DNA of 64,000 nt, taken from NCBI GenBank assembly GCA_963665295.1, contig OY762209.1:5088001-5152000 (forward strand). The letters run 5' to 3'. Source of the stretch: Syntrophorhabdaceae bacterium. GTDB lineage: Bacteria; Desulfobacterota; Syntrophorhabdia; Syntrophorhabdales; Syntrophorhabdaceae. A model generated the notes under the pieces. That model saw only the letters and a list, made by a program, of their open reading frames with translations. It had not been told where the DNA came from and did not search any database. The position numbers and the translations under genes were made by a program. Positions 2,911 through 17,360 of the stretch are shown piece by piece. Numbering within the stretch: position 1 is the first letter of the stretch; each line of letters opens with the position of its first letter.

Positions 2911-5346
2911 ATGCCCCAAAAGAATTTTCCACCAGATCCGCTAAACCAGGTCCGTAAGAAAGGCTCCATCATGCGAAAAGCGGTGACGCCGCTCATCCTG
3001 TTCATATTGTTCATTGCAGCCCTGCCCTTCCAGGGATATCCGGCACAGCCCACCTATCCGATCTCGACGCCCGTTCAGACTACACGGGAGCGCACGGTGA
3101 GCCCTGATCCGATACCCGACGCACCCCAGATTGCCATAGGGGAGGTGGACCAGTACCAGGCGTACGGATACAGTAGTTGGAGCGTCGGGGCCGGTGTCGA
3201 TTACGGGATACTTTCGCCGGAAGGACCCTATGTGGACTCCTACAACGCGGTGGAGACCCTTCTCACGTATTTCACCATGAGCGATATCCATATCACCGAC
3301 AAAGAATCCACTGCCCAGGCCCTCTATATGTCATACGGGCTCGGAACGTGGGGAAACTCCAACACCTCGGCATACTCTCCGATTATCCTGTCCACCACGC
3401 ACGTGCACGACGCGGCGGTGCAGACGATCAACGCCCTCCACAAGGAGGCGCCCTTTGATTTCGGCCTCTCCCTGGGCGACGAGACGAACAGCACCCAGTA
3501 TAATGAGGTCAGGTGGTTTATCGACGTCATGGACGGAAAAAAGATCACCCCAAGTTCGGGGGCGCACAAGGGAGCGGGCTCCATCGATTACCAGAAGCCC
3601 TACCAGTCGGCCGGGCTCGACAAGTCGATTCCCTGGTATGTGGTCATCGGCAACCATGACCAGTTCTGGTGCGGCTCCCTCTACCCCAACGACTATGTCC
3701 GGAGAGTCATGGTCGGCAATACGGTCCTCGATATGGGCAACGACGCAACAGGGGCGCTCTCGCTGGAAACTCGCGGTAACTACATGGGTGTGGTTGACGG
3801 GACGACACCGTACGGAACCGTCATAGACTATGGACCCGCTTTCAGCGCCATGCCCACGCCCATCGTGGCCGCCGACTCGAACCGCCGGAGCCTCAGCACC
3901 TCGACATCCACAACCTTGAACTGGATGAAAGAGTTTTTCAAGACCACGTCGCAACCGAAGGGCCACGGGTTCACCCAGGTAAACCTCGATAATGACTTCG
4001 CGTCCTACACCTTTGAGCCCAAATCAAGCGTGCCGGTGAAGGTCATTGTCCTCGACGACACCTGCAAGGAGAATCCTCTCAGCAGCCTGAGCCATTCATA
4101 CGCAAGAGGCTGCCTGGACCAGCAACGGTACGACTGGCTCGTCAGTGAGCTTAACCGGGGTCAGGCCGAGGGTAAGCTCATGATTGTGGCCGCCCACGTC
4201 CCGGTGGGACCTCAGCTCAATGTCCCCGACTACCCGGTGCCTCCGGGCTATCCCGCAAACTCGACGCCCGTGGCCGTCTTCCTCTCCACCTGCAACGCCC
4301 CCGGCTCAACTGTCGGCGTGCCTTGTAATAAGAGCATCGGGATCGCCAACAATAGCCCCGTTCTCCCTTACTCGGTCGTCACCGACGAGTCGCTCCTTAC
4401 AACGCTCCACAATTACTCGAACCTGATTCTGTGGCTCTCGGGGCACCGCCACCTCAATACCGTCAGCCCCAAGCCCGCGCCGAACGCGGAGACTCCCGAA
4501 TTCGGTTTCTGGGAGGTGGAGACCGCATCCCTCCGGGACCACCCCCAGACCTTCCGCACCTTTAAGATCGTCCGGAACGACAACAATACGGTCTCCATAT
4601 TCGTCACCAACGTGGACCCCTCCGTTGCCGGCACAGGCTCTCCCGCGGATAAATCCCGCGGCTATGCGATCGGCGCACAAAGGATCTCCATGGGCACCAC
4701 CTACGGGGGCCTCACCGATACCTACCCTCACGTCTATAACGCGGAGCTTATCAAACAGCTGGCCGCCCCCTATACCATCACGGTCAACGTGACCGGGCCG
4801 GGCTCCGTGCAGATGGGCCCCTATCAGGCCGCCACATGCTCCTCAAGCAGCCCTTGCTCAGCGTCCTATCTTCCGGGCACGGCGGTAAATCTCGCCGCCA
4901 CTCCCGCCTCCGGGGCCGTCTTTGCCGGGTGGTCAACCTGCGCGGGGACATCAACATGCAACGTTACCATGACCGACAATCTCACAGTAACCGCAGCCTT
5001 CACTCAGGCCCCCACCGCAATCACGACTCCGGCCTACAAGAACCTCGGGGCGGTAAAGAGGGGCAAAAAAGCGACCGCTACTTTCACGGTGAGAAATGCC
5101 ACGACCAAAGGCGTCGCCGATCTCACTCTCGGAACCGCTTCAATTACCGGAGCGGACGCGGGGCAGTTTCAACTTGTAGCGGGCAAAGACCGCTGCTCCG
5201 GCCAGACCATCAAACCGGGCAAGAGCTGCACCTTCCAGGTTTCTTTCGCACCCACTGCGACAAACACAAGGATGGGAACGGTTACCGTACCCTCCAACGA
5301 CTCCGGTTCACCGGCGACCGCACAGGTCGCGGGTACAGGAAAATAG
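2911..5346 (+). CDS. Secreted calcineurin-like metallophosphoesterase (RPA4764/TIGR03768-like) with C-terminal Ig-like/choice-of-anchor-D-like domains
   Basis: AAGGAGG RBS before ATG 2911; hydrophobic signal region; metal motifs SDIHITD, GDETN, GNHD, AAHVP, GHRH; C-terminal InlB-B-like repeat and ...PSND...GTGK. Confidence 0.85.
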   Translation: MPQKNFPPDPLNQVRKKGSIMRKAVTPLILFILFIAALPFQGYPAQPTYPISTPVQTTRERTVSPDPIPDAPQIAIGEVDQYQAYGYSSWSVGAGVDYGILSPEGPYVDSYNAVETLLTYFTMSDIHITDKESTAQALYMSYGLGTWGNSNTSAYSPIILSTTHVHDAAVQTINALHKEAPFDFGLSLGDETNSTQYNEVRWFIDVMDGKKITPSSGAHKGAGSIDYQKPYQSAGLDKSIPWYVVIGNHDQFWCGSLYPNDYVRRVMVGNTVLDMGNDATGALSLETRGNYMGVVDGTTPYGTVIDYGPAFSAMPTPIVAADSNRRSLSTSTSTTLNWMKEFFKTTSQPKGHGFTQVNLDNDFASYTFEPKSSVPVKVIVLDDTCKENPLSSLSHSYARGCLDQQRYDWLVSELNRGQAEGKLMIVAAHVPVGPQLNVPDYPVPPGYPANSTPVAVFLSTCNAPGSTVGVPCNKSIGIANNSPVLPYSVVTDESLLTTLHNYSNLILWLSGHRHLNTVSPKPAPNAETPEFGFWEVETASLRDHPQTFRTFKIVRNDNNTVSIFVTNVDPSVAGTGSPADKSRGYAIGAQRISMGTTYGGLTDTYPHVYNAELIKQLAAPYTITVNVTGPGSVQMGPYQAATCSSSSPCSASYLPGTAVNLAATPASGAVFAGWSTCAGTSTCNVTMTDNLTVTAAFTQAPTAITTPAYKNLGAVKRGKKATATFTVRNATTKGVADLTLGTASITGADAGQFQLVAGKDRCSGQTIKPGKSCTFQVSFAPTATNTRMGTVTVPSNDSGSPATAQVAGTGK

Positions 5347-5869: not shown

Positions 5870-6361
5870 CTATTTGTTCATCATCCTTTTGTGGCTGCTC
5901 ATCTTCATGAACATCACGGACCTCATCTTCTTGAACTGTTCCTCCGTCAGAATAGACCGCATCTGTTTCATGGCCCTCAGCATTTCCAGGTGTTGGGCTG
6001 TCCGCATATCTCCAAGTTTCTTGACCGCAGCGCTCGCCTTATCCAGGTCAAAGTCCTTCACATCCATGATTTCCATCAGATCGATCCGCGCGATCTTCTG
6101 ATCGGCTTTGAACCTGGCTTGTTTCTTCATCATTTCCCTGTGCAAGGACTTCATCTTCGTGATCTGATCATCGGTAAGACCCATACCGACCGCATTCTCC
6201 ACGCATATCCCCATCATAGAGCCCATCATATCCATATCGTGCATACCCGTCATTTGTCCATGTTCCCCCCTGCGGTCGTTCATGGACATGCCCGTCATCT
6301 GTGAGAAAGCGGGCGCTACCAGCAAAACCGTCATCAACAATGCAAATACCAGCTTCTTCAT
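5870..6361 (-). CDS. Periplasmic Spy/CpxP-like (Met-rich) protein
   Basis: Signal peptide, Met/His-rich N-terminus, LTDDQ and ILTEEQ (LTxxQ) motifs; AGGAGG RBS. Confidence 0.85.
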   Translation of the reverse strand: MKKLVFALLMTVLLVAPAFSQMTGMSMNDRRGEHGQMTGMHDMDMMGSMMGICVENAVGMGLTDDQITKMKSLHREMMKKQARFKADQKIARIDLMEIMDVKDFDLDKASAAVKKLGDMRTAQHLEMLRAMKQMRSILTEEQFKKMRSVMFMKMSSHKRMMNK

Positions 6362-6722
6362 AATTTCCTCCTGTTTATGTGAGAAATGGAAACGTCATTA
6401 ATCCTTTTGATACCTTTGGTCCGACCCGCCGCGGGTCTTATCGCGCCCGACCGCCGGCTCCGCCCTGCAAGGCAGCGGTTCTTGCGTGCCTCCATTTCTG
6501 AACCGCGGGCATCTCCCTGAGAATCTGCACGCACGGGTTACCCCGCCGGCTATTCGGCCTTACCAGGAAGATAAGGATTGAGAAATCGGTTTGCAAGGAC
6601 CGGAGGCAGACGACGTACAGGAATACACGGGCGATCAAAGGGCGTTCCCGTGCTCCCCCCTTCGTTATTGTCTGCATACGAGATGGACCGTCACAAAGAT
6701 GACAGCCCTTCCAACAAGTGAT

Positions 6723-6751
6723 TTCACTTTAAACCCGGTGCAGTGTATAAT
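6723..6751 (+). promoter_or_regulatory. Putative sigma70 promoter of the second metallophosphoesterase
   Basis: TTCACT-N17-TATAAT, ~75 nt upstream of the GTG start. Confidence 0.45.
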
Positions 6752-6827
6752 TTCATATTGTGAACCCGTGGCAGGTTCTTTGCAGAAAATGGATTTCAGA
6801 CATTACAGAGACAAGGGAGGAAAGTCT

Positions 6828-9248
6828 GTGATACACAAAAATGTTACCGAAAACCGGAACAGCCTGCTTTCTCAAAAAAGCTGCATAATCCGAAACGTGA
6901 CCGCACTGTCATTCCTGGTCTTCCTGTTTATTATGACCCTGCCGTTCCACGGATACCCGGCAGGACCCACGTACCCCATCTCCACTGATGTCCAGACCAC
7001 AAGGCAGAGGACAGTACGTCCCTCCCCTATACCCGAAGCGCCGGAGATCCCGATATGGCAGGTCGAGAATTATGCCGGATACGGGTACAGTAACTGGACA
7101 TTCGGAGACCCTGTCGACTACGGCAGACTCTTGCCGGACGGCTCCGAACCTGATGTATCCAACCCGGTCGAAACGCTACTAAATTACTTTTCCATAAGCG
7201 ATACTCACATCACCGACAAGGAATCGCCGGCCCAATCGCTCTACTTCGGGGTGCAGGGAGGTTTTGGAAGCGCCAACCTGCCGATGTACTCACCCGTTAT
7301 GCTGTCCACCACCCACGTTCTTGACGCGGTGGTCCAGACCATCAACGCCCTCAACACGGGGACGCACTTCGATTTCGGCATAGGGCTTGGCGATCCGGCG
7401 AACAGCAACCTGTACAACGGGCTCAGGTGGCATATCGACATTCTCGACGGAAAGTGGATCACTCCGAGCTCGGGTGCGCACAAAGGAGCGAAGACTATCG
7501 ACTACCAGAAACCCTACCAATCGGCGGGGCTCGACAAGTCGATTTCATGGTACCAGGTCATCGGCAACCATGACCAGTATTGGTCCGGCGCCTTCTATCC
7601 CAACGATTACCTTCGAAGCACCCTCGTGGGAAACACCGTTCTCAACATGGGCCTCGTGGGAGGGAACCCTTCCCTTGAGGCGCGCGGCATCTATATGGGC
7701 GTAATTGACGGGACTACCCCCTACGGGACCGTCGAGGACGACGGCGCAGCCTCGACCATGGAGCCGCCGAAGGTAGCCGCCGACAGTCGCCGCCGCGCAC
7801 TCACGACCCCCACGTCGTCGTCCCTGAACTGGATGAAGGAGTTTTTCAACACCACTTCGAAACCGAAGGGCCACGGGTTCACCCAGGCCAATCTCGATCA
7901 GGACTTTGTCTCCTACACCTTCGAGCCCAAATCGAGCGTGCCGGTAAAGGTCATAGTCCTCGACGACACGTGCAAGGAAAACCCGTACTACGGTTCGTAT
8001 TCCCACGGCTGCCTGGATCAGACACGGTATGACTGGCTTGTCAACGAACTTGACCAGGGTCAGGCCGAGGGCAAGCTCATGATCGTCGCCGCCCATGTCC
8101 CGGTAGGACCTCAGACAAATGTCCCCGACGCCCCGATTCCGCCGAACCCGCAGGCCCCCGCCGTTCCCAACGATACGGTCATCCCCATGTTCTTCTCCAC
8201 GTGCAACACTAACCCGACTTCCATAGGGGTCACTTGTGCCGCCGGTGTCGATATATCAAACAATGACCCGGTCTTCCCTTATACCGTCGTCACCGACTGG
8301 ACGCTCCTTCAGACTCTTCATAACTACTCGAACCTCATCCTCTGGATGGCGGGGCACCGTCACATGAATACCGTCACCCCGCAACCCGCACCCGTAGACA
8401 AGGGCCCGGAGTTCGGCTTCTGGGAGGTGGAAACCCCATCGACCAGGGACTTCCCTCAGGGGTTTCGCACATTTCAGATCGTTCGTAACGACAACAATAC
8501 GGTTTCCATATTCGTCACCAACGTGGACCCCGCGGTCCAGAACGGTTCTCCCGCGGACAAGTCCCGTGGGTATGCGATCGGCGCATACAGGATAGCAACC
8601 GGCACGCCCGGTCTCACTGATACCACCTCTCATGTATATAACGCGGAGCTTATCAAGCCCCTTGCCGATCCTTATACCATTACGGTCAACGTGACCGGGC
8701 CCGGTACGGTAGACATGGGCCCCTACCAGGCTGCCACATGCTCCGTGAGCAGCCCTTGTTCGGCGGATTATCTCCCGGGCACGCAGGTGGTCCTTGCCCC
8801 CATTCCCTCCACCGGGGCTGCCTTTACCGGGTGGTCGGTCTGTCCGGGGACATCAACGTGCAACATCATCATGACCGGTGATACCACGGTGACGGCAAGA
8901 TTCATCCAGTCTCCGACCGCGACCGCCGCCCCGACCTACAAAAACTTCCCTGTTACAAAGACCGGGAAGAAGGCCGTCTCCACCTTTACGGTCAGCAATA
9001 CCCGGGCGAAAGGCATCGTTGATCTTGCAATCGGTACCATTTCGATAGGCGGGCTAAACGCAGACCAGTTCCAGGTCGTGGAAGGCAAGGACCGTTGTTC
9101 CGGACAGATTGTCAAGCCGGGCAAGAACTGCACCTTTCAGGTTTCTTTCAATCCCACTTTGACGAATACCCGGGTGGCAACGGTTACGATACCCTCGAAC
9201 GACTCCGCTTCACCTACGACCATACCGATCACCGGAGCGGGAAAATAG
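6828..9248 (+). CDS. Secreted metallophosphoesterase, paralogue of 2911..5346
   Basis: GTG start after a GGGAGG RBS aligns with the paralogue's N-terminus; SDTHITD, GDPAN, GNHD and GHRH motifs; same C-terminal module ending GAGK. Confidence 0.85.
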   Translation: MIHKNVTENRNSLLSQKSCIIRNVTALSFLVFLFIMTLPFHGYPAGPTYPISTDVQTTRQRTVRPSPIPEAPEIPIWQVENYAGYGYSNWTFGDPVDYGRLLPDGSEPDVSNPVETLLNYFSISDTHITDKESPAQSLYFGVQGGFGSANLPMYSPVMLSTTHVLDAVVQTINALNTGTHFDFGIGLGDPANSNLYNGLRWHIDILDGKWITPSSGAHKGAKTIDYQKPYQSAGLDKSISWYQVIGNHDQYWSGAFYPNDYLRSTLVGNTVLNMGLVGGNPSLEARGIYMGVIDGTTPYGTVEDDGAASTMEPPKVAADSRRRALTTPTSSSLNWMKEFFNTTSKPKGHGFTQANLDQDFVSYTFEPKSSVPVKVIVLDDTCKENPYYGSYSHGCLDQTRYDWLVNELDQGQAEGKLMIVAAHVPVGPQTNVPDAPIPPNPQAPAVPNDTVIPMFFSTCNTNPTSIGVTCAAGVDISNNDPVFPYTVVTDWTLLQTLHNYSNLILWMAGHRHMNTVTPQPAPVDKGPEFGFWEVETPSTRDFPQGFRTFQIVRNDNNTVSIFVTNVDPAVQNGSPADKSRGYAIGAYRIATGTPGLTDTTSHVYNAELIKPLADPYTITVNVTGPGTVDMGPYQAATCSVSSPCSADYLPGTQVVLAPIPSTGAAFTGWSVCPGTSTCNIIMTGDTTVTARFIQSPTATAAPTYKNFPVTKTGKKAVSTFTVSNTRAKGIVDLAIGTISIGGLNADQFQVVEGKDRCSGQIVKPGKNCTFQVSFNPTLTNTRVATVTIPSNDSASPTTIPITGAGK
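8987..9084 (+). repeat. 98-bp segment (inside the CDS) repeated at 14295..14392
   Basis: Manual alignment gives about 10 mismatches in 98 nt with no gaps. Confidence 0.85.
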
Positions 9249-9400: not shown

Positions 9401-10909
9401 TCAGGGCGCCCGGCAGAGCCATTTTCTCCTCTCTTCTTCGTATTTCTCCTCTGCAATCGCCAATCGGGAAGGGTCCACAAGCCACCGCCAGGGAGCATCC
9501 ATATGCCACTGCCGGTGGACGTATTGCCCTATGCACTTGTCGTCAACAAACACTTTCATGGCTCCCCCCGGTACTTTGCCGAATAGAACGAATCTGAGCC
9601 TCAATCTGCCTTGCCCGAAAAAACGCAACATAGACTTGATGTGAAGATATCCGTCGAGCCTTCTCAAAACAATATTCCTGGTATTTCTCAATATTCTTGA
9701 GATGCGGGCATAGGCATAGACGCACATGCCCGCTAAGCCCCCGGCAACCGGGCGATGCCTCCCTTGCCCGTGCACGGCCGTGACACGGCCTTCCACCGCA
9801 CTCATGGGGACCGGGAAGGGGTCGTTTTCAGAGTTGTTGTCGCCGCGGGTCAGGAGACCGTCGGCGTGTACGGCCATGATCCGGTGGACCACCCTGATGC
9901 CCTTTACAGGATCGTGAAAACAGGCGACGTCGCCGCGGCGGGGATTCTTACCGTTGTAGGGTTCAACATCCAGAAAATCGGGCGCTTTCAACGTGGGATA
10001 CATGCTGTTTCCAGAGAGCGTCACACCCCAAGGCATGACCGGAACCCTCACGGAACTGCCGCCGGCAGATGGGTGCGCCACAGGGTATCCGCTCAGAAGG
10101 GGCTCTTTTTTTAACGACTCTTCGACCAGCTTCCAGAATTCTCCGGTCAGACCCAGATGAAGGATGTACGCATGCAGCGCCGCCGTCAGTGCACAGACGA
10201 TCGAGAATTGCCTCAAGCGGTTTTCCCGCACCTCGGGAAGGGATAATTGCCGGTCGAAAACACCGTTTACCTGTCCTACCGAGTCGATAAGCATGGCTGC
10301 AGCCTGGGTCGGATTGATTTCTTCTAAAGTATCTTCCGGGGAGCGACGGAGAAAGTAGAGAGCAGCGAGCGGTACGGCAGCGCCGGTATCCCAGGCGCCG
10401 CCCGGGCCGTCGTCATAAAAGCGGCTCCAAGTCGGCCAGGGATGTGCCAGATACTTTCCCTCCGGATCCCGTACGATAAGGACCGTATCGTCACAGAGCG
10501 AATGCCAGGGAAAAGGGAGCCTTAAAGATGCCGTGGTTTTTCCGGTACCTCCCGGCGCCGCAAAAAGAACCCCTTTCCCTTCGTACTCTGCGAGCGCGCC
10601 ATGCACAAGTACGCCGCCGTGGGTTTGGACTTCATGGGCAATGACCAGGCTAACCTTCATAGCCCTGGATACAAGGTCGAACCTATTTTGGGGTCGGGAG
10701 AAGCGGTAGACAATCATATCATCGTCTACGGAAAAGGCTTCCTCTTGCTCTTCCCGGGCGGTCATAACGCAAAGAGAACGACTCGCGACGCCGGTCTTGA
10801 GCATCATGGCGTTCGCCAGGAGTTCCACGACGGGCTCCATTTCCTTTGTTCCCGCGTGGATTTGTCTTCGGGAGCCGTCAGTCAGAGACAGCAGGTATGA
10901 TTTCCCCAT
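9401..10909 (-). CDS. scmC: SynChlorMet cassette ScmC-like HprK-related kinase fused to an S26/S24-type serine peptidase domain
   Basis: N-half: VHGALAE...GVLFAAPGGTGKTT (Walker A), SLCDD, AHPWPTWS. C-half: SGNSMYPTL, RRGDV, VVHRI, TRGDNN. It lies directly downstream of two rSAM genes. Confidence 0.78.
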   Translation of the reverse strand: MGKSYLLSLTDGSRRQIHAGTKEMEPVVELLANAMMLKTGVASRSLCVMTAREEQEEAFSVDDDMIVYRFSRPQNRFDLVSRAMKVSLVIAHEVQTHGGVLVHGALAEYEGKGVLFAAPGGTGKTTASLRLPFPWHSLCDDTVLIVRDPEGKYLAHPWPTWSRFYDDGPGGAWDTGAAVPLAALYFLRRSPEDTLEEINPTQAAAMLIDSVGQVNGVFDRQLSLPEVRENRLRQFSIVCALTAALHAYILHLGLTGEFWKLVEESLKKEPLLSGYPVAHPSAGGSSVRVPVMPWGVTLSGNSMYPTLKAPDFLDVEPYNGKNPRRGDVACFHDPVKGIRVVHRIMAVHADGLLTRGDNNSENDPFPVPMSAVEGRVTAVHGQGRHRPVAGGLAGMCVYAYARISRILRNTRNIVLRRLDGYLHIKSMLRFFGQGRLRLRFVLFGKVPGGAMKVFVDDKCIGQYVHRQWHMDAPWRWLVDPSRLAIAEEKYEEERRKWLCRAP

Positions 10910-10950
10910 GGTCTGTCAACCCTCTCATTCAACATTGCCGGAGAGGGTCT

Positions 10951-12144
10951 TCAACGGACCGTATCCGGCATGAGGCGTGTTGTCCCTTGCGTGCTCCGGC
11001 CTTTCCTGCGGCGACTTGCCGGGAAAAGCCCTTGCCTGTCGGCCTCCCGGCATCGCGTGCCCGCCCATACCATACCTCCCCCTTTCCGGTAGTTTGCGGC
11101 AACGCAGCCGGTGCGGCACACGCGCGAGAGGATGCAATCCCCGCATATTCCCGGATACCCGAGATAATCTTCAAGCTCCCGCCGGAGACTTTGCAGTTTC
11201 GGGTGATGGAACCATATCTCCCGCACGCTGTCGCCCAGACGTCCATAGACAAGGGAGGGGACCGTCTGCCCAATGCCGCACATAGCGATCTCGCCCGTGC
11301 CCAGGATACCCAGAATACCGATGACGCCGCAATCCCCCGTGCGGCCCCCGGTTTCCATGAGCGTCCTGAAAGACCGGACGGCCGGCGGCAAATTGAGGAT
11401 GAAACCCTTGATGGACGTCTTTTCCTTCAGTTCGCCATACACATATTTCTCAAGGGCCCGCAGTTCCGTGATGCCGAGGGTTTCCCTGCGCGCCGTCATC
11501 TGCTTGCCCCGCCCGCTGTCGGTGACAGGATTGAATTTTACCGAGGCCACGCCATGCTTTGCCGCCAGGGATGCAACGCCGTCTATTTGAGAAACGTTTC
11601 CTCTATGGAGGCTCATGATGACCTGCGTGTTGTCGTATCCCGCTTCTTTGAGGCAGTCAAGTCCGCTCAAGGCGGCGGCAAAAGCGCCTCGGGCGCCTCT
11701 GAAGGCGTCGTGCGCCTCCTCGTCGGGATCGTCGAGGCTCACGGAAATGGAGCCTACTTTTGTGTTGTTCTTGAGCCAGTGCGCCAGCTCCCGCGTCATC
11801 AGGGTGCCGTTGGTCTCCATGTTCATGGTGAGGCCCATGTCGGAGAGCCCCGCCGCAATCTCCTTGAAGCGTGGATGAAGAAGGGGCTCGCCGCCCGTGA
11901 GTTTTGCCCTTGTCAATCCCAGGTTTTTGGCCTCTTTCACCGCGGCAAAAAGCGGTTCCGGGTCGATGCATTCCCGCGGGTCGGGCCTGCCGTCGATAAA
12001 ACGCGGCGTGACCCAGCAGTGGCGGCACATGAGGTTGCAGCCGGAGGTGAGATAGAGGTAAAAGGAGCGGAGCGGCGGCACACCTTGCGGCAGCTCCGGG
12101 AAAGATGACGATTCAACGGGAATTTCCGGATCGCAAAGGGACAT
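10951..12144 (-). CDS. scmF: Radical SAM/SPASM peptide maturase, ScmF-like
   Basis: FYLYLTSGCNLMCRHCW (CxxxCxxC), LTGGEPLLHP, METNGTL, SPASM Cys array CGDCILSRVCRTGC; probable start ATG 12144 after a GAGGA RBS. Confidence 0.85.
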   Translation of the reverse strand: MSLCDPEIPVESSSFPELPQGVPPLRSFYLYLTSGCNLMCRHCWVTPRFIDGRPDPRECIDPEPLFAAVKEAKNLGLTRAKLTGGEPLLHPRFKEIAAGLSDMGLTMNMETNGTLMTRELAHWLKNNTKVGSISVSLDDPDEEAHDAFRGARGAFAAALSGLDCLKEAGYDNTQVIMSLHRGNVSQIDGVASLAAKHGVASVKFNPVTDSGRGKQMTARRETLGITELRALEKYVYGELKEKTSIKGFILNLPPAVRSFRTLMETGGRTGDCGVIGILGILGTGEIAMCGIGQTVPSLVYGRLGDSVREIWFHHPKLQSLRRELEDYLGYPGICGDCILSRVCRTGCVAANYRKGGGMVWAGTRCREADRQGLFPASRRRKGRSTQGTTRLMPDTVR

Positions 12145-13258
12145 TCTTATCCTCTTTATATTTCTTGTAGCAGTTCCTTGGGTCAACGGCGTTTAACGTG
12201 CCGCATTGGGCGAAAACGACCGCCGGGCAGCCTCCTGTGCAAAATCCGGCATAGCTGCAGTCCCCGCATCCGGCGACCGTGGTGATCGGGGTTTCATAAC
12301 GTGTGCGCAGGATATTGATTTCCCGTCCTGAAAGCCACGCCTCGCGAAGCGGCGTAGAGCCGATCTTCCCCATGACCATAGTAGGCAGCATAGTGCAAGG
12401 GACGATAGCGCCGTCGTGGCGAATCGCCATCTTATTGAAAACTCCGCCACAGGCGGCAAGTTTTCCCCTGCCCGGCAGGCCGGTCTTGCCTTCGGCGAGG
12501 GCTCCTTCGATCTGAGCGACGTTTCTGGTGAAGGCCAGGGGTCCCGCTGCGGCTTTAATGCGTCCCGGGTAGCGCAGGGCAAGCTCTTCCATGGTTTTGA
12601 CGGCCACGTCCCACTCTTCGTTGGAGAGGATCACGTCCTGACCGGAGCAGCGGGCGGAGCCGAAGGGGTTGGCGCCGTCGGTGCTGAAGGATTTCAGCCC
12701 TGCGTCTTCGAGGAGCAGGACGGCGACGTTTTCCAGATCACGCACATTGTAGCGATTGACCGTGACCCGGACGGTAACAGGAAAATCATGTTTCTTGAGC
12801 AGGCGCAACCCGCGCAAAGCCCGCTCGAAGCTCGCAGGCGAACGAGTTGAGTCGTGGATCTCAGGCGTGGCTCCGTCGATGGATACCTGAATGGAATCGA
12901 GGCGCAGCCGGCGCTTGCCTTCACGGAAGGCGTCGATGACCTTGTCGTCGATGAGGGTGCCGTTGGAGAGAACGCTGTAGCGCATGCGGTTTTCGATCAC
13001 GCTGTCAACCAGTGTGAAAAAATCAGGACGAGTAAAGACCTCGCCGCCGCTTAAGGTGAGGCGCTCGACGCCTATTGCACCCGCCTCAACAAAAAACTCA
13101 CGCCACCGATCCGTAGGAAGATCGTCAAGGGCGGTCATTTCATCGGCGTAGAAGCAATAGCGGCACCGGAGGTTGCATTTACCCGTCAGACTGACCTGAA
13201 GGTTCGCGGGTGCGCCGCGTACACCGAAAGGATTGTTTTCACGTCTCCGAGGTTTCAT
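12113..13258 (-). CDS. scmE: Radical SAM/SPASM peptide maturase, ScmE-like
   Basis: LTGKCNLRCRYC, LSGGEVFTRPDF, VSIDG, SPASM Cys array ACGG...PC...CGDCSYAGFCTGGCP. Confidence 0.85.
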   Translation of the reverse strand: MKPRRRENNPFGVRGAPANLQVSLTGKCNLRCRYCFYADEMTALDDLPTDRWREFFVEAGAIGVERLTLSGGEVFTRPDFFTLVDSVIENRMRYSVLSNGTLIDDKVIDAFREGKRRLRLDSIQVSIDGATPEIHDSTRSPASFERALRGLRLLKKHDFPVTVRVTVNRYNVRDLENVAVLLLEDAGLKSFSTDGANPFGSARCSGQDVILSNEEWDVAVKTMEELALRYPGRIKAAAGPLAFTRNVAQIEGALAEGKTGLPGRGKLAACGGVFNKMAIRHDGAIVPCTMLPTMVMGKIGSTPLREAWLSGREINILRTRYETPITTVAGCGDCSYAGFCTGGCPAVVFAQCGTLNAVDPRNCYKKYKEDKNVPLRSGNSR

Positions 13259-13514
13259 CGTGGACGATTACAAAATCGGGCAGCAGGGATTCAATAAACC
13301 TCTCGACATCCTCCTGCACATGCGTGGCGCCTTCGGTGTTTGCCGCCAGATATGCCGAGATTTCCGCGGAGGTCCGGGGCCGGGCGATTCTGTCCCATAT
13401 GAGCCGTCCCGTTTCGTTGATCAGCACCACTTCGTCCGTATCGGGGTTGAAAAGCAGCGCCCCTTCGTCCTCGTCCCTTAGAGACACTACAGGATTTACT
13501 GCGTAACGCTTCAT
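13239..13514 (-). CDS. scmD: PqqD-family RiPP recognition element (ScmD-like)
   Basis: 91 aa, NPVVSLRDEDEGALLFNPDTDEVVLINETGRLIW...DVERFIESL; overlaps the rSAM start. Confidence 0.85.
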   Translation of the reverse strand: MKRYAVNPVVSLRDEDEGALLFNPDTDEVVLINETGRLIWDRIARPRTSAEISAYLAANTEGATHVQEDVERFIESLLPDFVIVHDETSET

Positions 13515-13807
13515 AGATTGACCTCATACCCGATTAATCCCGTATCCAGGAGAATATCCAGAATGGCCCGCACATCGTCCTCCAGCGTCGGTGGCGCATC
13601 AATAAAACATTTTGCCGTTTCCTCGATGATGTCCCCCACGGTGCGGACGCCGTTCACGAGCCGCCAGATCAAAAGTCCGGTTGAGTTGAGCGCAAGACCG
13701 GTCGGAACGTCCAGATTGACGATAACCGCCCAGCCGCCTGCGTCTTCCTGCAGGGCATACGCCGGATTGCCGACAGGCAGCGAATCTAAACCGATTTCCC
13801 CGATCAT
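13511..13807 (-). CDS. Second PqqD-family RiPP recognition element
   Basis: 98 aa, ALNSTGLLIWRLVNGVRTVGDII...DVRAILDILLDTGLI; ATGA overlap with the next gene. Confidence 0.85.
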   Translation of the reverse strand: MIGEIGLDSLPVGNPAYALQEDAGGWAVIVNLDVPTGLALNSTGLLIWRLVNGVRTVGDIIEETAKCFIDAPPTLEDDVRAILDILLDTGLIGYEVNL

Positions 13808-13963
13808 TCAGATTTCCATTCAATGTCGTTAAGTTCTATTTATAGCGTATAAATCACTAATTGGCAATCACAATAATATATTGGCGGAATAATTTGTTGA
13901 AGTTGCAATCGTAAATGTGGTATTCAAATGATAAATCACAGATCAAAAGGAGGTTCGGTCAAC

Positions 13964-14164
13964 ATGAAGAAAACATCCTCCCCCACATCGACACCGGTCA
14001 TGGACAGCCCGGAGACTAAAGCGGCCAAGCGGTACGTCCCACCCACTGCGCTTCGGTTCGAATACTCTGTGGCGCACGCAGCCTGCAGCTATGGATCCGA
14101 CGCCCCCACCGGGTGCAGTACCGGCGCCGTCGCCTTCGGCTGCACCAATGGGACCAACGAATAA
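13964..14164 (+). CDS. Putative RiPP precursor peptide (ScmA-like), 66 aa
   Basis: AAGGAGGT RBS; leader with KRYVPP (YxxP); core with CSYG, CSTG and CTNG; divergent from the PqqD/rSAM operon. Confidence 0.78.
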   Translation: MKKTSSPTSTPVMDSPETKAAKRYVPPTALRFEYSVAHAACSYGSDAPTGCSTGAVAFGCTNGTNE

Positions 14165-14294: not shown

Positions 14295-14392
14295 TACGGT
14301 CAACAATACCCGGACGAAAGGCATGGTTGATCTTGTAATCGGCACCATTTCCATAGGCGGGTTGAACGCGGACCGGTTCCAGGTCGTGGAAG
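14295..14392 (+). repeat. Degenerate non-coding copy of 8987..9084 (metallophosphoesterase C-terminal fragment)
   Basis: About 90% identity by manual alignment; intergenic. Confidence 0.85.
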
Positions 14393-15560: not shown

Positions 15561-17360
15561 ATGAAGAACATTTTGCGGATTCTCGGAGTATTGCTCATTG
15601 GCGCGGTCTGTCTTTTTGCAACGGATTGCCTTGCCCAAGGTAAACCTCCATTGAAGGTTGCCCTCATATTCGACATAGGCGGGAGAGGGGACGGCGGGTT
15701 CAATGATTCCGCATACCATGGTCTTCAAAAAGCGGCCCGCGACTTCAACATAAAGACGGACCTTGTCGAACCCCGGAGAAGTCTGGACAGGGAACAGGCC
15801 TTAAACGCCCTTGCGGTTTCCGATGCGGACATGGTTATTGGAGTGGGGTTCGCCTTTACTGAAAACATGAATGCCCTTGCCGCCCGGTATCCCCAAAAGA
15901 AGTTCGTATGTGTCGATTACGGCGTCAAGCACGACCACAAAGGGGCCGTCATACCCCCTGCGGCAAACCTGGCAGGCCTGCTTTTCAAGGAAGAGGAAGG
16001 CTCTTACCTGGTAGGAGTCATGGCAGCCTTAAGGAGCGGGACAGGCAAGATCGGATTTATGGGCGGCATGGATTGCCCCATCATTCGTAAATTCGAAGCC
16101 GGCTACATGGCGGGCGCCAAGGCGGCGAGGCCCGATATCATCGTGCTGTCACGGTTTGCGGGGATTACGGGAAAGTCGTTCAACGACCCTGAAAAAGGAG
16201 AAGCCATGGCAACCGCCATGTACCGGGATGGGGCGGACGTTATCTTTCACGCCGCCGGACCTACTGGGGAGGGTCTCTTCAAGGCCGCAAAGAAGTTCAA
16301 CAGGTTCGCCATAGGCGTTGACAGCGACCAGTACATGCAGGCGCCCGGTCTAGTCCTCACGAGCATGACCAAGAATGTGGACGTGGCGGTTTTTGAAAGC
16401 ATCAAGTCCCTGGCGGACGGAAACTTCTCCGGGGGCCTCAAGGTTTTCGGCCTGAAAGAGAACGGCGTGGGATTTGTCTATGACGATCACAACAAGGGCC
16501 TCATCCCCCCGGACGCGTACAAAAAGGTCCTCGAGGCGCGGGAAAGGATTATAAAAGGAGAAACCGTCGTCCCCACCTCTACCCAAAACAAGCGGTTATT
16601 TGCAAGATCGGACCTGCGCGAACTCCTTTCCCGGTTGCAGAGCGAGACCCTTGCCGTACTGGCCGGACTGGAGGGGGATCTCACACGAAGCGCCCGGGCC
16701 CTCTCGGGAAAGACGCTCAAGGGCAACCACGCCCGGAAGGTGCTCAAGAAACTCTACGCCTCGAACCCTTATATCATCGATTGTGAAACAGTGAGCAACA
16801 AAGGGATCATGCTCGTGGTGGAGCCGTCCCGGTTCAGTTCATCCGAAGGAGCCGATATAAGCAAGCAGGCACACATGGTGACCCTTTTCCGGACAAAGAA
16901 ACCCGTGTTAAGCGGGGCCTTCCGTTCCGTTGAGGGCCCGGAGGCGGTGGCGTTCCATTATCCTGTCTTCTCTTCCCCGGGCAAGACATTTTCAGGGTCC
17001 GTGTCAACCCTTTTCGCTCCCGAATACCTTTTGTCCCGCATAATAGGCCCCGTCGCATCTCTCCAGCCCGTGGATATATCGCTCATGCAGACGGACGGCA
17101 GGATGATCTACGACATAGACACAAAACAGATAGGCTTGAATGCCTTCACCGACCCCCTGTATCAGCCGTTCCCCGAGGTCCTTGCCCTCGTCAAGAAGGT
17201 AGCCGCGGAAAAGGAAGGCACCGCCACCTACCGTTTCTACCGTCAGGGATCACAGACACCCGTAGTAAAAGAAGCCCACTGGAAGACCATAGCCTTCCAC
17301 GGTGCCGAGTGGAGGCTCATAGTAGCCTGTTCAAAGGATGACATGGAACCGGACAAATAG
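15561..17360 (+). CDS. BMP/PnrA-family substrate-binding protein fused to a C-terminal Cache-like domain
   Basis: GGRGDGGFNDSAY, FKEEEGSYLVG, DVIFHAAG, IGVDSDQ, LTSMTKNVD; the C-terminal ~240 aa has Cache-like GADISKQAH, KPVLS and LMQTDGRMIYD. Confidence 0.8.
   Translation: MKNILRILGVLLIGAVCLFATDCLAQGKPPLKVALIFDIGGRGDGGFNDSAYHGLQKAARDFNIKTDLVEPRRSLDREQALNALAVSDADMVIGVGFAFTENMNALAARYPQKKFVCVDYGVKHDHKGAVIPPAANLAGLLFKEEEGSYLVGVMAALRSGTGKIGFMGGMDCPIIRKFEAGYMAGAKAARPDIIVLSRFAGITGKSFNDPEKGEAMATAMYRDGADVIFHAAGPTGEGLFKAAKKFNRFAIGVDSDQYMQAPGLVLTSMTKNVDVAVFESIKSLADGNFSGGLKVFGLKENGVGFVYDDHNKGLIPPDAYKKVLEARERIIKGETVVPTSTQNKRLFARSDLRELLSRLQSETLAVLAGLEGDLTRSARALSGKTLKGNHARKVLKKLYASNPYIIDCETVSNKGIMLVVEPSRFSSSEGADISKQAHMVTLFRTKKPVLSGAFRSVEGPEAVAFHYPVFSSPGKTFSGSVSTLFAPEYLLSRIIGPVASLQPVDISLMQTDGRMIYDIDTKQIGLNAFTDPLYQPFPEVLALVKKVAAEKEGTATYRFYRQGSQTPVVKEAHWKTIAFHGAEWRLIVACSKDDMEPDK

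Follow-up and report, generated by a model that had tools for sequence, protein, structure and literature searches.

A SynChlorMet-like cassette with two radical SAM/SPASM enzymes and a divergently encoded Cys-x-x-Gly precursor in a Syntrophorhabdaceae bacterium

The window (the whole 64,000-nucleotide stretch of DNA analysed here) carries a six-gene cassette that, as judged from sequence, is a variant of the catalogued, uncharacterised SynChlorMet system (TIGR04248-04252), and in which two radical SAM/SPASM enzymes likely modify a 66-residue precursor encoded divergently from them. The gene set is the same as that of SynChlorMet, with two radical SAM/SPASM genes, PqqD genes, ScmC and the gene of a Cys-rich peptide clustered together, and Scm models are the best matches of both radical SAM enzymes, both RREs and the kinase. 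With a precursor of the same family present, this bears out the initial annotation of a peptide-maturation cassette of SynChlorMet type; its description as complete holds for the clustered gene set and for ScmC, which exceeds its cut-off, but not for ScmA, ScmD, ScmE and ScmF, which miss theirs. The gene cluster itself is unsurprising, since curated models have existed for years; the open biochemistry lies in two uncharacterised radical SAM/SPASM families, a putative kinase for an internal residue and a soluble leader protease of the signal-peptidase type. As had been supposed, no paper on a SynChlorMet product was found in the literature searched, which leaves subscription journals mostly uncovered, so that a recent characterisation may have been missed; the accessible part of the supplement text of PMC10288494 contains no Scm terms, and its dataset of ~15,000 enzymes or its figures could cover the family under another label.

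Layout of the cassette and its proteins

All six open reading frames are intact, with no internal stop and with the coordinates first reported, and the tight minus-strand operon described initially, facing away from a small Cys-containing ORF with a strong ribosome-binding site, is confirmed. The minus-strand order is RRE1 (98 aa, 13511..13807), RRE2 (91 aa, 13239..13514), an ScmE-like (381 aa, 12113..13258) and an ScmF-like (397 aa, 10951..12144) radical SAM/SPASM enzyme, and an ScmC-S26 kinase-peptidase fusion (502 aa, 9401..10909); the junctions are, in order, overlaps of 4, 20 and 32 nt and then a gap of 41 nt before the fusion. The precursor gene (66 aa, 13964..14164) lies divergently on the plus strand, and its start at 13964 is favoured over an upstream ATG at 13928 because the Shine-Dalgarno sequence AAGGAGGT (13947..13954, plus strand) sits 9 nt before it. 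The putative promoters of both units are likely located in the AT-rich divergent intergenic region (13808..13963, 32% GC), where a 7-3-7 palindrome occupies 13838-13854; a promoter scan gave a single weak site, while 2.5 would arise by chance, and the yield of promoter and terminator scanning was no higher than chance. The flanking genes encode two TIGR03768 metallophosphoesterases, and a hotdog thioesterase with a Usp protein; Pfam and NCBIfam profiles detect no exporter among them, in agreement with the first description of the locus. The cassette is compact, at about 4.8 kb with a single precursor of three units, which makes this copy directly testable by co-expression. Two public contigs cover the whole stretch with zero differences, and may be the window's own source; a search of sequencing runs lists no RNA dataset that contains it.

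Both radical SAM proteins lie above the Pfam Radical_SAM cut-off. The ScmE-like enzyme scores 365.4 bits with TIGR04250 and the ScmF-like enzyme 299 bits with TIGR04251, each against a cut-off of 400 and ahead of the next model by 243 and 180 bits, respectively; canonical members reach 580-596 bits (ScmE) and 565-611 bits (ScmF). In the subgroup to which the window's enzymes belong, none of the 11 ScmE and ScmF proteins tested reaches 400 bits, and the window's ScmE-like enzyme is only 39-44% identical to members above the cut-off; the two enzymes belong to a widespread sister subgroup of canonical ScmE/ScmF. The cysteines of the ScmE-like enzyme (C28-C32-C35 and SPASM positions 270, 288, 331, 334, 340, 344 and 363) are kept in 73-75 of 75 aligned rows, those of the ScmF-like enzyme (C36-C40-C43 and SPASM positions 272, 289, 334, 337, 343, 347 and 365) in 66-67 of 67, and the two proteins are 24-26% identical to each other. 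A selenocysteine in the ScmE of two relatives was considered and rejected, the in-frame TGA being the gene end. A set of seven SPASM cysteines also occurs outside thioether enzymes. In ScmE the seven pair one-to-one with those of CteB in a weak match (E 0.07), compatible with a non-Cys fourth ligand, and the SPASM part of ScmF finds no match in the PDB. In CteB the auxiliary cluster has an open site that is bound by a Cys of the peptide, according to the accessible text of PMC8172795. Among solved structures even the closest, SkfB (E 1e-12) and PqqE (E 2e-10), are distant, and the StsB model, which is among the top five NCBIfam matches of ScmE, scores only 97 and 76 bits against a cut-off of 625.

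That the two enzymes act on a non-peptide substrate of the heme d1 or siroheme type, as with AhbC/D and NirJ, the small ORF being a bystander, is highly improbable. AhbD is indeed the second or third best NCBIfam match of both enzymes, at 116-119 bits, but this is far below its cut-off of 500 and one third of the Scm scores, and the AhbC, AhbD and NirJ models (TIGR04545/04546/04051, cut-offs 500-650) give at most 119 bits in comparison with 365 and 299 for ScmE and ScmF, which supports the role in peptide maturation first proposed; moreover, precursor and RREs travel with them in 25 of the 26 fully flanked loci described below.

Both small proteins exceed the Pfam PqqD cut-off (PF05402, 23.4 bits) with 50.8 bits for RRE1 and 42.9 for RRE2, and thus match RRE models as anticipated; neither reaches the ScmD cut-off of 100 (TIGR04248, 47 and 34 bits), which is still the best NCBIfam match of both. 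In a quick tree, which carries long-branch warnings, RRE1 falls in a clade of 30 rows (support 97) and RRE2 in a separate clade of 29 (support 100), and the two would seem to be old paralogs, conserved separately. The suggestion of one RRE per radical SAM enzyme is possible, in view of these paralogs and of RRE-ScmE fusions in 6 of 80 loci (the best 80, which were examined, of 302 relatives detected), but the pairing is not obligatory, as three fully flanked loci (L039, L052, L068) have two radical SAM enzymes and a single RRE. L096 has an RRE that continues into a precursor-like tail. Predicted binding of RRE2 to the leader (0.54, best control 0.02, with runs agreeing in at least 95% of contacts and partner pLDDT at least 58) passes a mark that 116 of 157 solved pairs, but also 2 of 215 mismatched ones, attain, although at 0.60 or below that mark covers only 18 of the solved pairs plus both mismatches; the prediction lends weak support to binding, and may reflect likeness, because solved RRE-leader complexes exist.

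The fusion protein exceeds the cut-offs of both ScmC (TIGR04249, 148.7 vs. 125 bits) and Pfam Peptidase_S26 (23.4 vs. 22.9 bits). An N-terminal HPr-kinase-like P-loop domain (H103, G123-K124, D140-D141) is followed by a disordered linker (residues 271-293), a soluble SEC11-type peptidase domain (S302, H342, D357, D363) and a C-terminal helical/beta domain, with motifs that vary little or not at all among 18 rows and the S26 catalytic positions at least 90% conserved. S302, H342-R343, G356-D357 and D363 align with SEC11A/C, where we take the corresponding residues to be the catalytic Ser-His-Asp, and the profile matches are to SEC11C (E 2e-13) and HPrK (E 0.01). The S26 domain thus appears to have an intact SEC11-type triad, in line with the earlier suggestion that the locus may provide for leader cleavage. 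A structure model of the fusion (pLDDT 81.9) has PEP carboxykinases as its top Foldseek matches and as the only ones among the matches listed (TM about 0.3), which confirms the fold class, not the substrate. Such fusions occur in 18 of the best 80 of the 302 relatives.

The precursor and its Cys-x(2-3)-Gly units

Scored with a profile of 62 precursors from other loci, the window's 66-aa ORF obtains 27.4 bits, a value reached by none of 2000 shuffled versions (maximum 12.8), and it ranks first among the 101,102 six-frame segments of its own genome (E 2.9e-5). The divergent ORF had been put forward as the precursor and, by this likeness, is a real ScmA-type precursor of the family. It has no match to the ScmA model itself (TIGR04252), which over the whole genome gives 4 weak matches, none above cut-off and none in the window; the model matches 4 of 30 aligned precursors (best E 1.7e-7), so that the window peptide is tied to it only by way of its relatives. 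The leader carries Y24-x-x-P27-x4-F32, YxxP being the lasso-type leader motif, and one of the 30 precursors matches lasso_leader_L3 (E 0.07). The window's leader is atypical, with 8.6 bits on a leader-only profile for which 11 was used for relatives, a Phe where 51 of 60 relatives have Leu, and 17 residues from the Tyr to the first Cys (18-24 in all 60). The core has three units, C41-G44, C51-G54 and C60-G63, and Y24, P27, C41, G44, C51, C60 and G63 are invariant in the 30-row alignment. A possible leader cut site lies after A37-H38-A39; the small-x-small rule behind this candidate is mildly enriched, holding before the first Cys in 43 of 62 cases and before later Cys in 109 of 228. The C-terminal residue is Glu, and a C-terminal Ser is found in only 3 of 81 relatives' precursors. 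Several different precursors may occur at one locus, with five in L020.

An earlier figure of 81% of Gly at +3 came from precursors picked with two CxxG motifs required and was hence biased; searching with a leader-only profile widens the unit from CxxG to C-x(2-3)-G. Among 81 precursors, Gly stands at +3 or +4 of 355 of 369 core cysteines (222 at +3, 97 at +4, 36 at both), the two spacings being mixed within a single precursor in 43. In a held-out set of 15 precursors found with the leader-only profile, Gly is at +3/+4 of 48 of 57 Cys (shuffle mean 20, maximum 32), and at +3 of only 15, inside the shuffle range (maximum 21). The Gly belongs to the preceding Cys, because the last Cys has one downstream in 77 of 81 precursors and a Gly 6-8 residues before the first Cys is found in only 23; plain disulfide pairing is disfavoured by the odd Cys number of 51 of the 81 cores. 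The number of core cysteines varies from 2 to 10, conservation does not extend to the residues adjoining Cys (at +1, 13% for the most frequent), and the 81 cores have no invariant residue pair other than Cys and Gly. Since the spacing varies and the held-out +3 count is within the shuffle range, the Gly may form a turn instead of accepting the bond.

Proposed maturation and the window copy among its relatives

The reading that we favour, tentatively and as falling a little short of probable, is that the product has unnested alpha-thioether rings from Cys to Gly, like those of streptosactin, together with phosphorylation and removal of the leader by the soluble SEC11-type peptidase. The RREs would present the peptide, bound by its YxxP leader, one radical SAM enzyme would take the alpha-hydrogen from the Gly, and the sulfur of the Cys, held at an open site of a three-cysteine auxiliary cluster, would close the ring, each of the three Cys being joined to the alpha-carbon of the Gly three residues downstream in a row of small unnested rings (-2 Da each, -6 Da in total). 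The second radical SAM enzyme would serve other units, or modify each unit a second time within its G-[S/T/N/D]-x-[A/P] part; ScmC would phosphorylate an internal Ser/Thr, and the fused S26 domain would cut the leader just before the first Cys. Full-size relatives have an ABC exporter and a nucleotidyltransferase in addition, so that the product of the family is probably secreted and further decorated; the window copy, with neither at its locus, would borrow them, do without, or be incomplete. In favour of this reading are the constant co-occurrence of the genes, the C-x(2-3)-G repeat with its Gly tied to the preceding Cys, the odd Cys number of most cores, the seven SPASM cysteines kept in both enzymes, the weakly supported contact of RRE2 with the leader, and the precedents of streptosactin, StsB, BlaB and bicyclostreptin. 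Against thioether rings stand the lack of a close characterised relative of the enzymes (SkfB, PqqE and StsB are all distant), the unfixed +3/+4 spacing, a second radical SAM enzyme left unexplained by a single reaction, the mild enrichment of the cut rule and the atypical leader, and the rarity (3 of 81) of the C-terminal Ser that lasso HPr-kinase homologs use, according to the accessible part of PMC8498205.

The same substrate and logic could also serve other chemistry, which we regard as possible but doubtful: the radical SAM enzymes would oxidise Cys (to a thio-oxazole, like SbtM, or to formylglycine, like anSME) or link it to a residue other than Gly, with Gly as a turn and a metal-binding or rigidified peptide as product. 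The variable spacing and the need of two such different enzymes for two jobs speak for this, and the Cys chemistries described for SbtM (PMC11002830) and anSME (PMC8172795), as far as the parts of these papers available go, provide precedent; on the other side, the SbtM model gives the two enzymes only 63 and 59 bits against a cut-off of 350, it is the downstream Gly that is conserved and not the residues next to Cys, and metal-uptake genes do not recur among the relatives' neighbour clusters.

Cassettes of this type span Deltaproteobacteria, Chloroflexota, Methanothrix, WOR-3 and other anaerobes, and ScmE was not found in a plasmid collection at E 1e-40. The 26 fully flanked ScmE loci all have ScmF and an ScmC-like kinase, and 25 have the S26 domain and 25 the precursor; 17 carry an ABC exporter no more than 8 kb away, and 18 a nucleotidyltransferase. 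A genome of the same family has RRE-RRE-E-F-A-C/S26-ABC-NTase in one row (L095), so that the window copy looks trimmed and rearranged. It is improbable, then, that the peptide is trimmed to a small intracellular cofactor-like molecule, as for PQQ or mycofactocin, which the initial annotation had drawn from the missing exporter: stand-alone PqqD proteins, a locus without exporter and the 9 of 26 fully flanked relatives with none nearby would suit this, but the exporters of the other 17, including that of L095, cores of 2-10 Cys that are unlike a cofactor precursor and share no residue pair besides Cys and Gly, and several different precursors per locus do not, and no cofactor-dependent enzyme recurs among the relatives' neighbours.

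We consider it unlikely that the window copy is a moved and trimmed remnant, its exporter and nucleotidyltransferase lost and its precursor displaced, making little or no mature product, although several features point that way. The enzymes of L095, which keeps the full row, are 49-71% identical to those of the window and its precursor only 28% alike; relatives' precursors are on the same strand in 73 of 77 cases, convergent downstream in 4 and divergently upstream in none. The cassette lies between the copies of a 98-nt repeat (14295..14392, plus strand, 90% identical to 8987-9084, the 3' part of the upstream phosphoesterase gene), likely the scar of an insertion or rearrangement, and was found in none of 3 same-genus genomes and in 2 of 24 from the family; in this genome the best matches for the ABC protein and the nucleotidyltransferase, which sit in other clusters, are only 39-40% and 29-45% identical. 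However, there is no frameshift or stop, all catalytic motifs are kept, the precursor's ribosome-binding site is strong, and loci without exporter are not rare (9 of the 26 fully flanked ones); in the sequence available, 7 of the 18 fusion loci have neither ABC nor nucleotidyltransferase, and for 4 of the 7 that sequence extends at least about 5 kb downstream. The best own-genome ABC protein is a doubtful exporter in trans: its 612 bits are below the 722-889 of the 28 profile members, and its gene belongs to another cluster, of the RRE/asparagine-synthetase/kinase/sulfotransferase kind.

Of the 26 fully flanked loci, 13 have polysaccharide-synthesis genes no more than 8 kb away, and the genome's only NTP_transf_5 match forms the end of a Wzz/Wza/YjbH locus. 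These observations prompt a speculative and rather unlikely extension, in which Scm-like products would be chains of small Cys-Gly thioether rings with a second radical SAM modification, an internal Ser/Thr phosphate and leader cleavage by a cytoplasmic SEC11-type peptidase, which full cassettes would glycosylate through the phosphate and export into the cell-surface polysaccharide coat of anaerobic bacteria and methanogens. If true, Scm-like cassettes would form an undescribed RiPP class, of which the window's six-gene, three-ring copy would be a minimal kit.

Comparison with known systems

Regions with ScmE/F above cut-off (L096, L098) carry precursors of the same profile; relative to canonical SynChlorMet, the window's cassette has two paralogous RREs, an ScmC fused to S26, a divergent precursor, and no ABC or nucleotidyltransferase gene at the locus. 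The lasso clusters of paeninodin and pseudomycoidin share the YxxP-type leader, stand-alone RRE and HPrK-like kinase and, with the Scm-like relatives, NTP_transf_5 and ABC genes (accessible part of PMC8498205), whereas this locus has no lasso cyclase, no B2 protease but an S26 peptidase instead, and no C-terminal Ser. Bicyclostreptin (HghABCD), likened here by description only, likewise depends on two radical SAM enzymes and one separate RRE, which act one after the other on a single short motif, a Gly alpha-carbon included (as described in the part of PMC11002830 available), but has Ser-His and N-to-Gly links and no Cys repeat.

StsB and BlaB form Cys-Gly sactionines, and StsA/StsB and BlaA/BlaB thus resemble the proposed system in that a SPASM enzyme, its RRE being a separate protein, makes Cys-to-Gly alpha-thioethers (PMC10288494, in its accessible part); they differ in their nested hairpin topology, and the StsB model gives ScmE 97 of 625 bits. 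Streptosactin (GggA/GggB) has one radical SAM enzyme, two rings and quorum-sensing control, with no kinase or S26 named in the accessible parts of PMC8172795 and PMC9389541. By description only, it is likened to the rings proposed here through its unnested four-residue rings, which join Cys to a Ser or Gly three residues on by alpha-thioethers, at Cys25-Ser28 and Cys31-Gly34.

The cassette and its relatives

The cassette at 9401..14164 of the window is real and intact. The initial annotation recognised it correctly in outline and had its gene content right: five minus-strand genes encode two RRE proteins (RRE1, 98 aa; RRE2, 91 aa), an ScmE-like (381 aa) and an ScmF-like (397 aa) radical SAM (rSAM) enzyme and a ScmC-S26 kinase-peptidase fusion (502 aa), with one plus-strand gene (13964..14164) for a 66-aa peptide. 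The first four operon genes (RRE1, RRE2, ScmE, ScmF) overlap by 4, 20 and 32 nt, and a spacer of 156 nt (32% GC) separates the operon from the 66-aa ORF, which has a strong Shine-Dalgarno sequence. Within this divergent spacer lies a perfect 7-3-7 palindrome (window 13838-13854), a candidate regulator site.

All five operon proteins have their best NCBIfam matches in the SynChlorMet (Scm) models, the meaning of which is read off the model names. Only the ScmC model is passed in the window (148.7 bits vs. a cut-off of 125); the ScmE-like and ScmF-like enzymes (365 and 299 vs. 400) and the RREs on the ScmD model (47 and 34 vs. 100) fall below theirs, and the same scan gave no match of the peptide to the ScmA model. 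Pfam confirmed PqqD, Radical_SAM and Peptidase_S26, with SPASM found on ScmE only. A heme-synthesis identity for the rSAMs, the grouping with non-peptide families that the initial annotation had set against its own reading, is not supported, their best score on heme-synthesis models being only 119 bits.

A scan with ScmE, taking one genome per species, gave 302 confirmed relatives, and the best 80 of these, examined together with flanks of up to 8 kb per side, span Deltaproteobacteria, Chloroflexota, Methanothrix, WOR-3, KSB1, Lentisphaerota and others. Among these 80, the 26 loci with complete flanks all have ScmF and the ScmC-like kinase, and 25 each have S26 and a precursor; over all 80, many with incomplete flanks, the counts are 68, 59, 56 and 60, respectively. 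One Methanothrix locus (L020:10276-13222) carries five precursors in tandem and a second ScmF copy. All 11 ScmE and ScmF proteins scored from the window's subgroup lie below the curated cut-offs, while all six from more distant genomes of the same order pass (565-611 bits); between their ScmE and that of the window the identity is 39-44%. This places the window in a large sister subgroup of the catalogued cassette, of which its locus is a divergent, trimmed variant. Among 40 relatives of the window's genome the cassette is patchy (genus 0/3, family 2/24, rest of the order 6/16). A full-text literature search found no product of such a cassette in print, the papers returned concerning other systems, and the SynChlorMet name is absent from PMC3531188. 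As a gene cluster the window's cassette is not surprising; its interest is as a compact test system.

The precursor and the RREs

This is very probably a peptide-maturation cassette acting on the 66-aa ORF. On a profile of 62 small Cys-rich ORFs from 54 loci, whose first selection favoured CxxG and from which the window's peptide was left out, that peptide scores 27.4 bits (shuffle maximum 12.8; 0 of 2000 above), and it is its genome's top match to the relatives' precursor profile. TIGR04252 is matched by 4 of 30 aligned precursors, and through these the family is linked to ScmA. The leader pattern is Y-x-x-P-x4-L, the lasso leader motif being YxxPxL; the first Cys follows the leader Tyr by 18-24 residues, and in 40 of the 62 position -2 from this Cys is a Gly. 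A leader-only profile search yielded 15 held-out precursors free of the CxxG selection, in which Gly stands at +3 or +4 of 48 of the 57 Cys (shuffle maximum 32) and at +3 of only 15 (shuffle maximum 21). Over 81 precursors the repeat unit is C-x(2-3)-G-[S/T/N/D]-x-[A/P], with a period of 9-14 residues; the core contains 2-10 Cys (an odd number in 51), and the downstream Gly is retained at the last Cys in 77. In the window's peptide the C-x-x-G unit occurs three times, behind an unusual leader that scores 8.6 bits on the leader profile, has Phe in place of Leu and is one residue short; the peptide's divergent position recurs in none of 77 relatives' precursors. At the canonical Scm locus L096 (11654-12148, minus strand) a PqqD domain shares one open frame with a tail that resembles a precursor, having a YQPP leader and two Cys-Gly units, so that RRE and precursor appear to be fused there.

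RRE1 and RRE2 are 24% identical, profile to profile, and at least two RRE domains occur in 66 of the best 80 of 302 loci. The suggestion of one RRE per rSAM stands in part: the two fall in separate supported clades of a quick tree, each single-copy in most fusion-type loci, and an RRE is fused to the ScmE N-terminus in six loci (L066, L069, L072, L073, L077 and L080), but L039, L052 and L068, with full flanks and two rSAMs, have one RRE. The six loci also carry a tandem double RRE ahead of ScmF. One of the two RREs could equally serve the peptidase, by analogy with lasso B1, which serves B2 (PMC8498205). Weak support for leader binding by RRE2 comes from a predicted structure of this protein bound to residues 14-48 of the leader (0.54 vs. 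0.02 for the best control). Within the cassettes at L078 (11999-12835) and L065 (11823-12671), a P-loop-like N-terminal part, sulfotransferase-like by eye, is fused to a C-terminal RRE, putatively for extra tailoring.

The missing exporter and the genomic surroundings

The initial annotation took the want of an adjacent exporter to mean a possibly intracellular, cofactor-like product. This is not borne out by the relatives: with profiles made from the same loci in which they were counted, an ABC exporter is found in 17 and an NTP_transf_5 nucleotidyltransferase (NTase) in 18 of the 26 fully flanked loci (30 and 31 of all best 80 of 302, many with incomplete flanks). L095, from a genome of the same family, encodes enzymes that share 49-71% identity with those of the window, and its gene order is RRE-RRE-E-F-precursor-ScmC/S26-ABC-NTase, as is that of L015. 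In the window, by comparison, 41 nt separate ScmF from ScmC, the precursor lies on the far side of the operon, and the gene that adjoins the operon's end codes for a phosphoesterase and has its 3' part repeated beyond the cassette. This direct repeat of 98 nt (window 8987-9084 and 14295-14392, 90% identity, 5308 nt apart) flanks the cassette and has no further copy at 90% identity elsewhere in the window's genome. The missing exporter therefore appears to be a local loss or rearrangement rather than a family trait; an exporter is also absent nearby in 9 of the 26 fully flanked loci among the best 80 of 302.

The closest ABC match in the genome (39-40% identity) belongs to another RRE cluster. 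The second RRE cluster of this genome (L107, G000:C1:385012-393255) comprises PqqD, asparagine-synthetase-like, HPrK-like, sulfotransferase, radical SAM and ABC exporter genes, and is adjoined by six small paralogous ORFs (G000:C1 380818-384232). A third (L109, G000:C1:660112-666436) encodes an S26-like protein, an RRE and three rSAMs, of which one carries a fused kinase-like domain; its two Cys-rich precursors have Ser as the last residue, and one of them scores weakly on the ScmA-type profile. The sole NTP_transf_5 match (L108, G000:C1:2870074-2871306) is the last gene of a sugar-transferase/Wzz/Wza/YjbH exopolysaccharide locus. Genes for polysaccharide synthesis (clusters of sugar transferase, DegT, Wzz, epimerase and nucleotidyl transferase) are found no more than 8 kb from the cassette in 19 of the best 80 of 302 loci and 13 of the 26 fully flanked, a link that is a lead only, most such loci being from related Chloroflexota.

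Near the cassette stands a tandem pair of genes for secreted TIGR03768 metallophosphoesterases (window 2911-5346 and 6591-9248, plus strand), paralogues of 68% identity that contain B-repeat and choice-of-anchor D domains; a third copy lies elsewhere in the genome, and between the tandem genes is a Met/His-rich Spy/CpxP-like periplasmic protein (5870-6361, minus strand). At 15561-17360 (plus strand) one gene joins a BMP-family substrate-binding domain to a sensor domain of the HK/GC/chemotaxis type.

The enzymes and a proposed scheme

In nearly all relatives, ScmE and ScmF alike retain the triad of the SAM cluster and seven cysteines in SPASM, and the seven of ScmE align weakly with those of CteB. 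The kinase-peptidase fusion occurs in 18 of the best 80 of 302 loci, the two being elsewhere separate, usually neighbouring genes. Its kinase half keeps the His, Walker A and Asp-Asp motifs, gives a weak profile match to HPr kinase (E 0.01) and is predicted to fold like the PEP-carboxykinase/HPrK class, whose two members are linked by fold. The peptidase half, placed behind the kinase domain and without an N-terminal membrane anchor, matches human SEC11A/C by profile (E 2e-13) and retains the SEC11 catalytic triad of Ser, His and Asp.

The scheme that we consider likeliest, with its Cys-Gly rings, is tentative as a whole, at somewhat short of an even chance, and we infer every step. An RRE would bind the leader; one rSAM would form a Gly alpha-radical and then close a Cys-Gly thioether in each unit, and the second would modify further or serve other units. 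ScmC may phosphorylate internal Ser/Thr; Ser directly follows the unit's Gly in 30-35% of units vs. an 11.5% background, although Asn is also common there. The S26 domain would cut off the leader near A37-H38-A39. Streptosactin has Cys25-Ser28 and Cys31-Gly34 links (PMC8172795) and StsB/BlaB Cys-Gly links (PMC10288494), precedents for the proposed rings, and bicyclostreptin, with two rSAMs in series (PMC11002830), is a precedent for such serial action.
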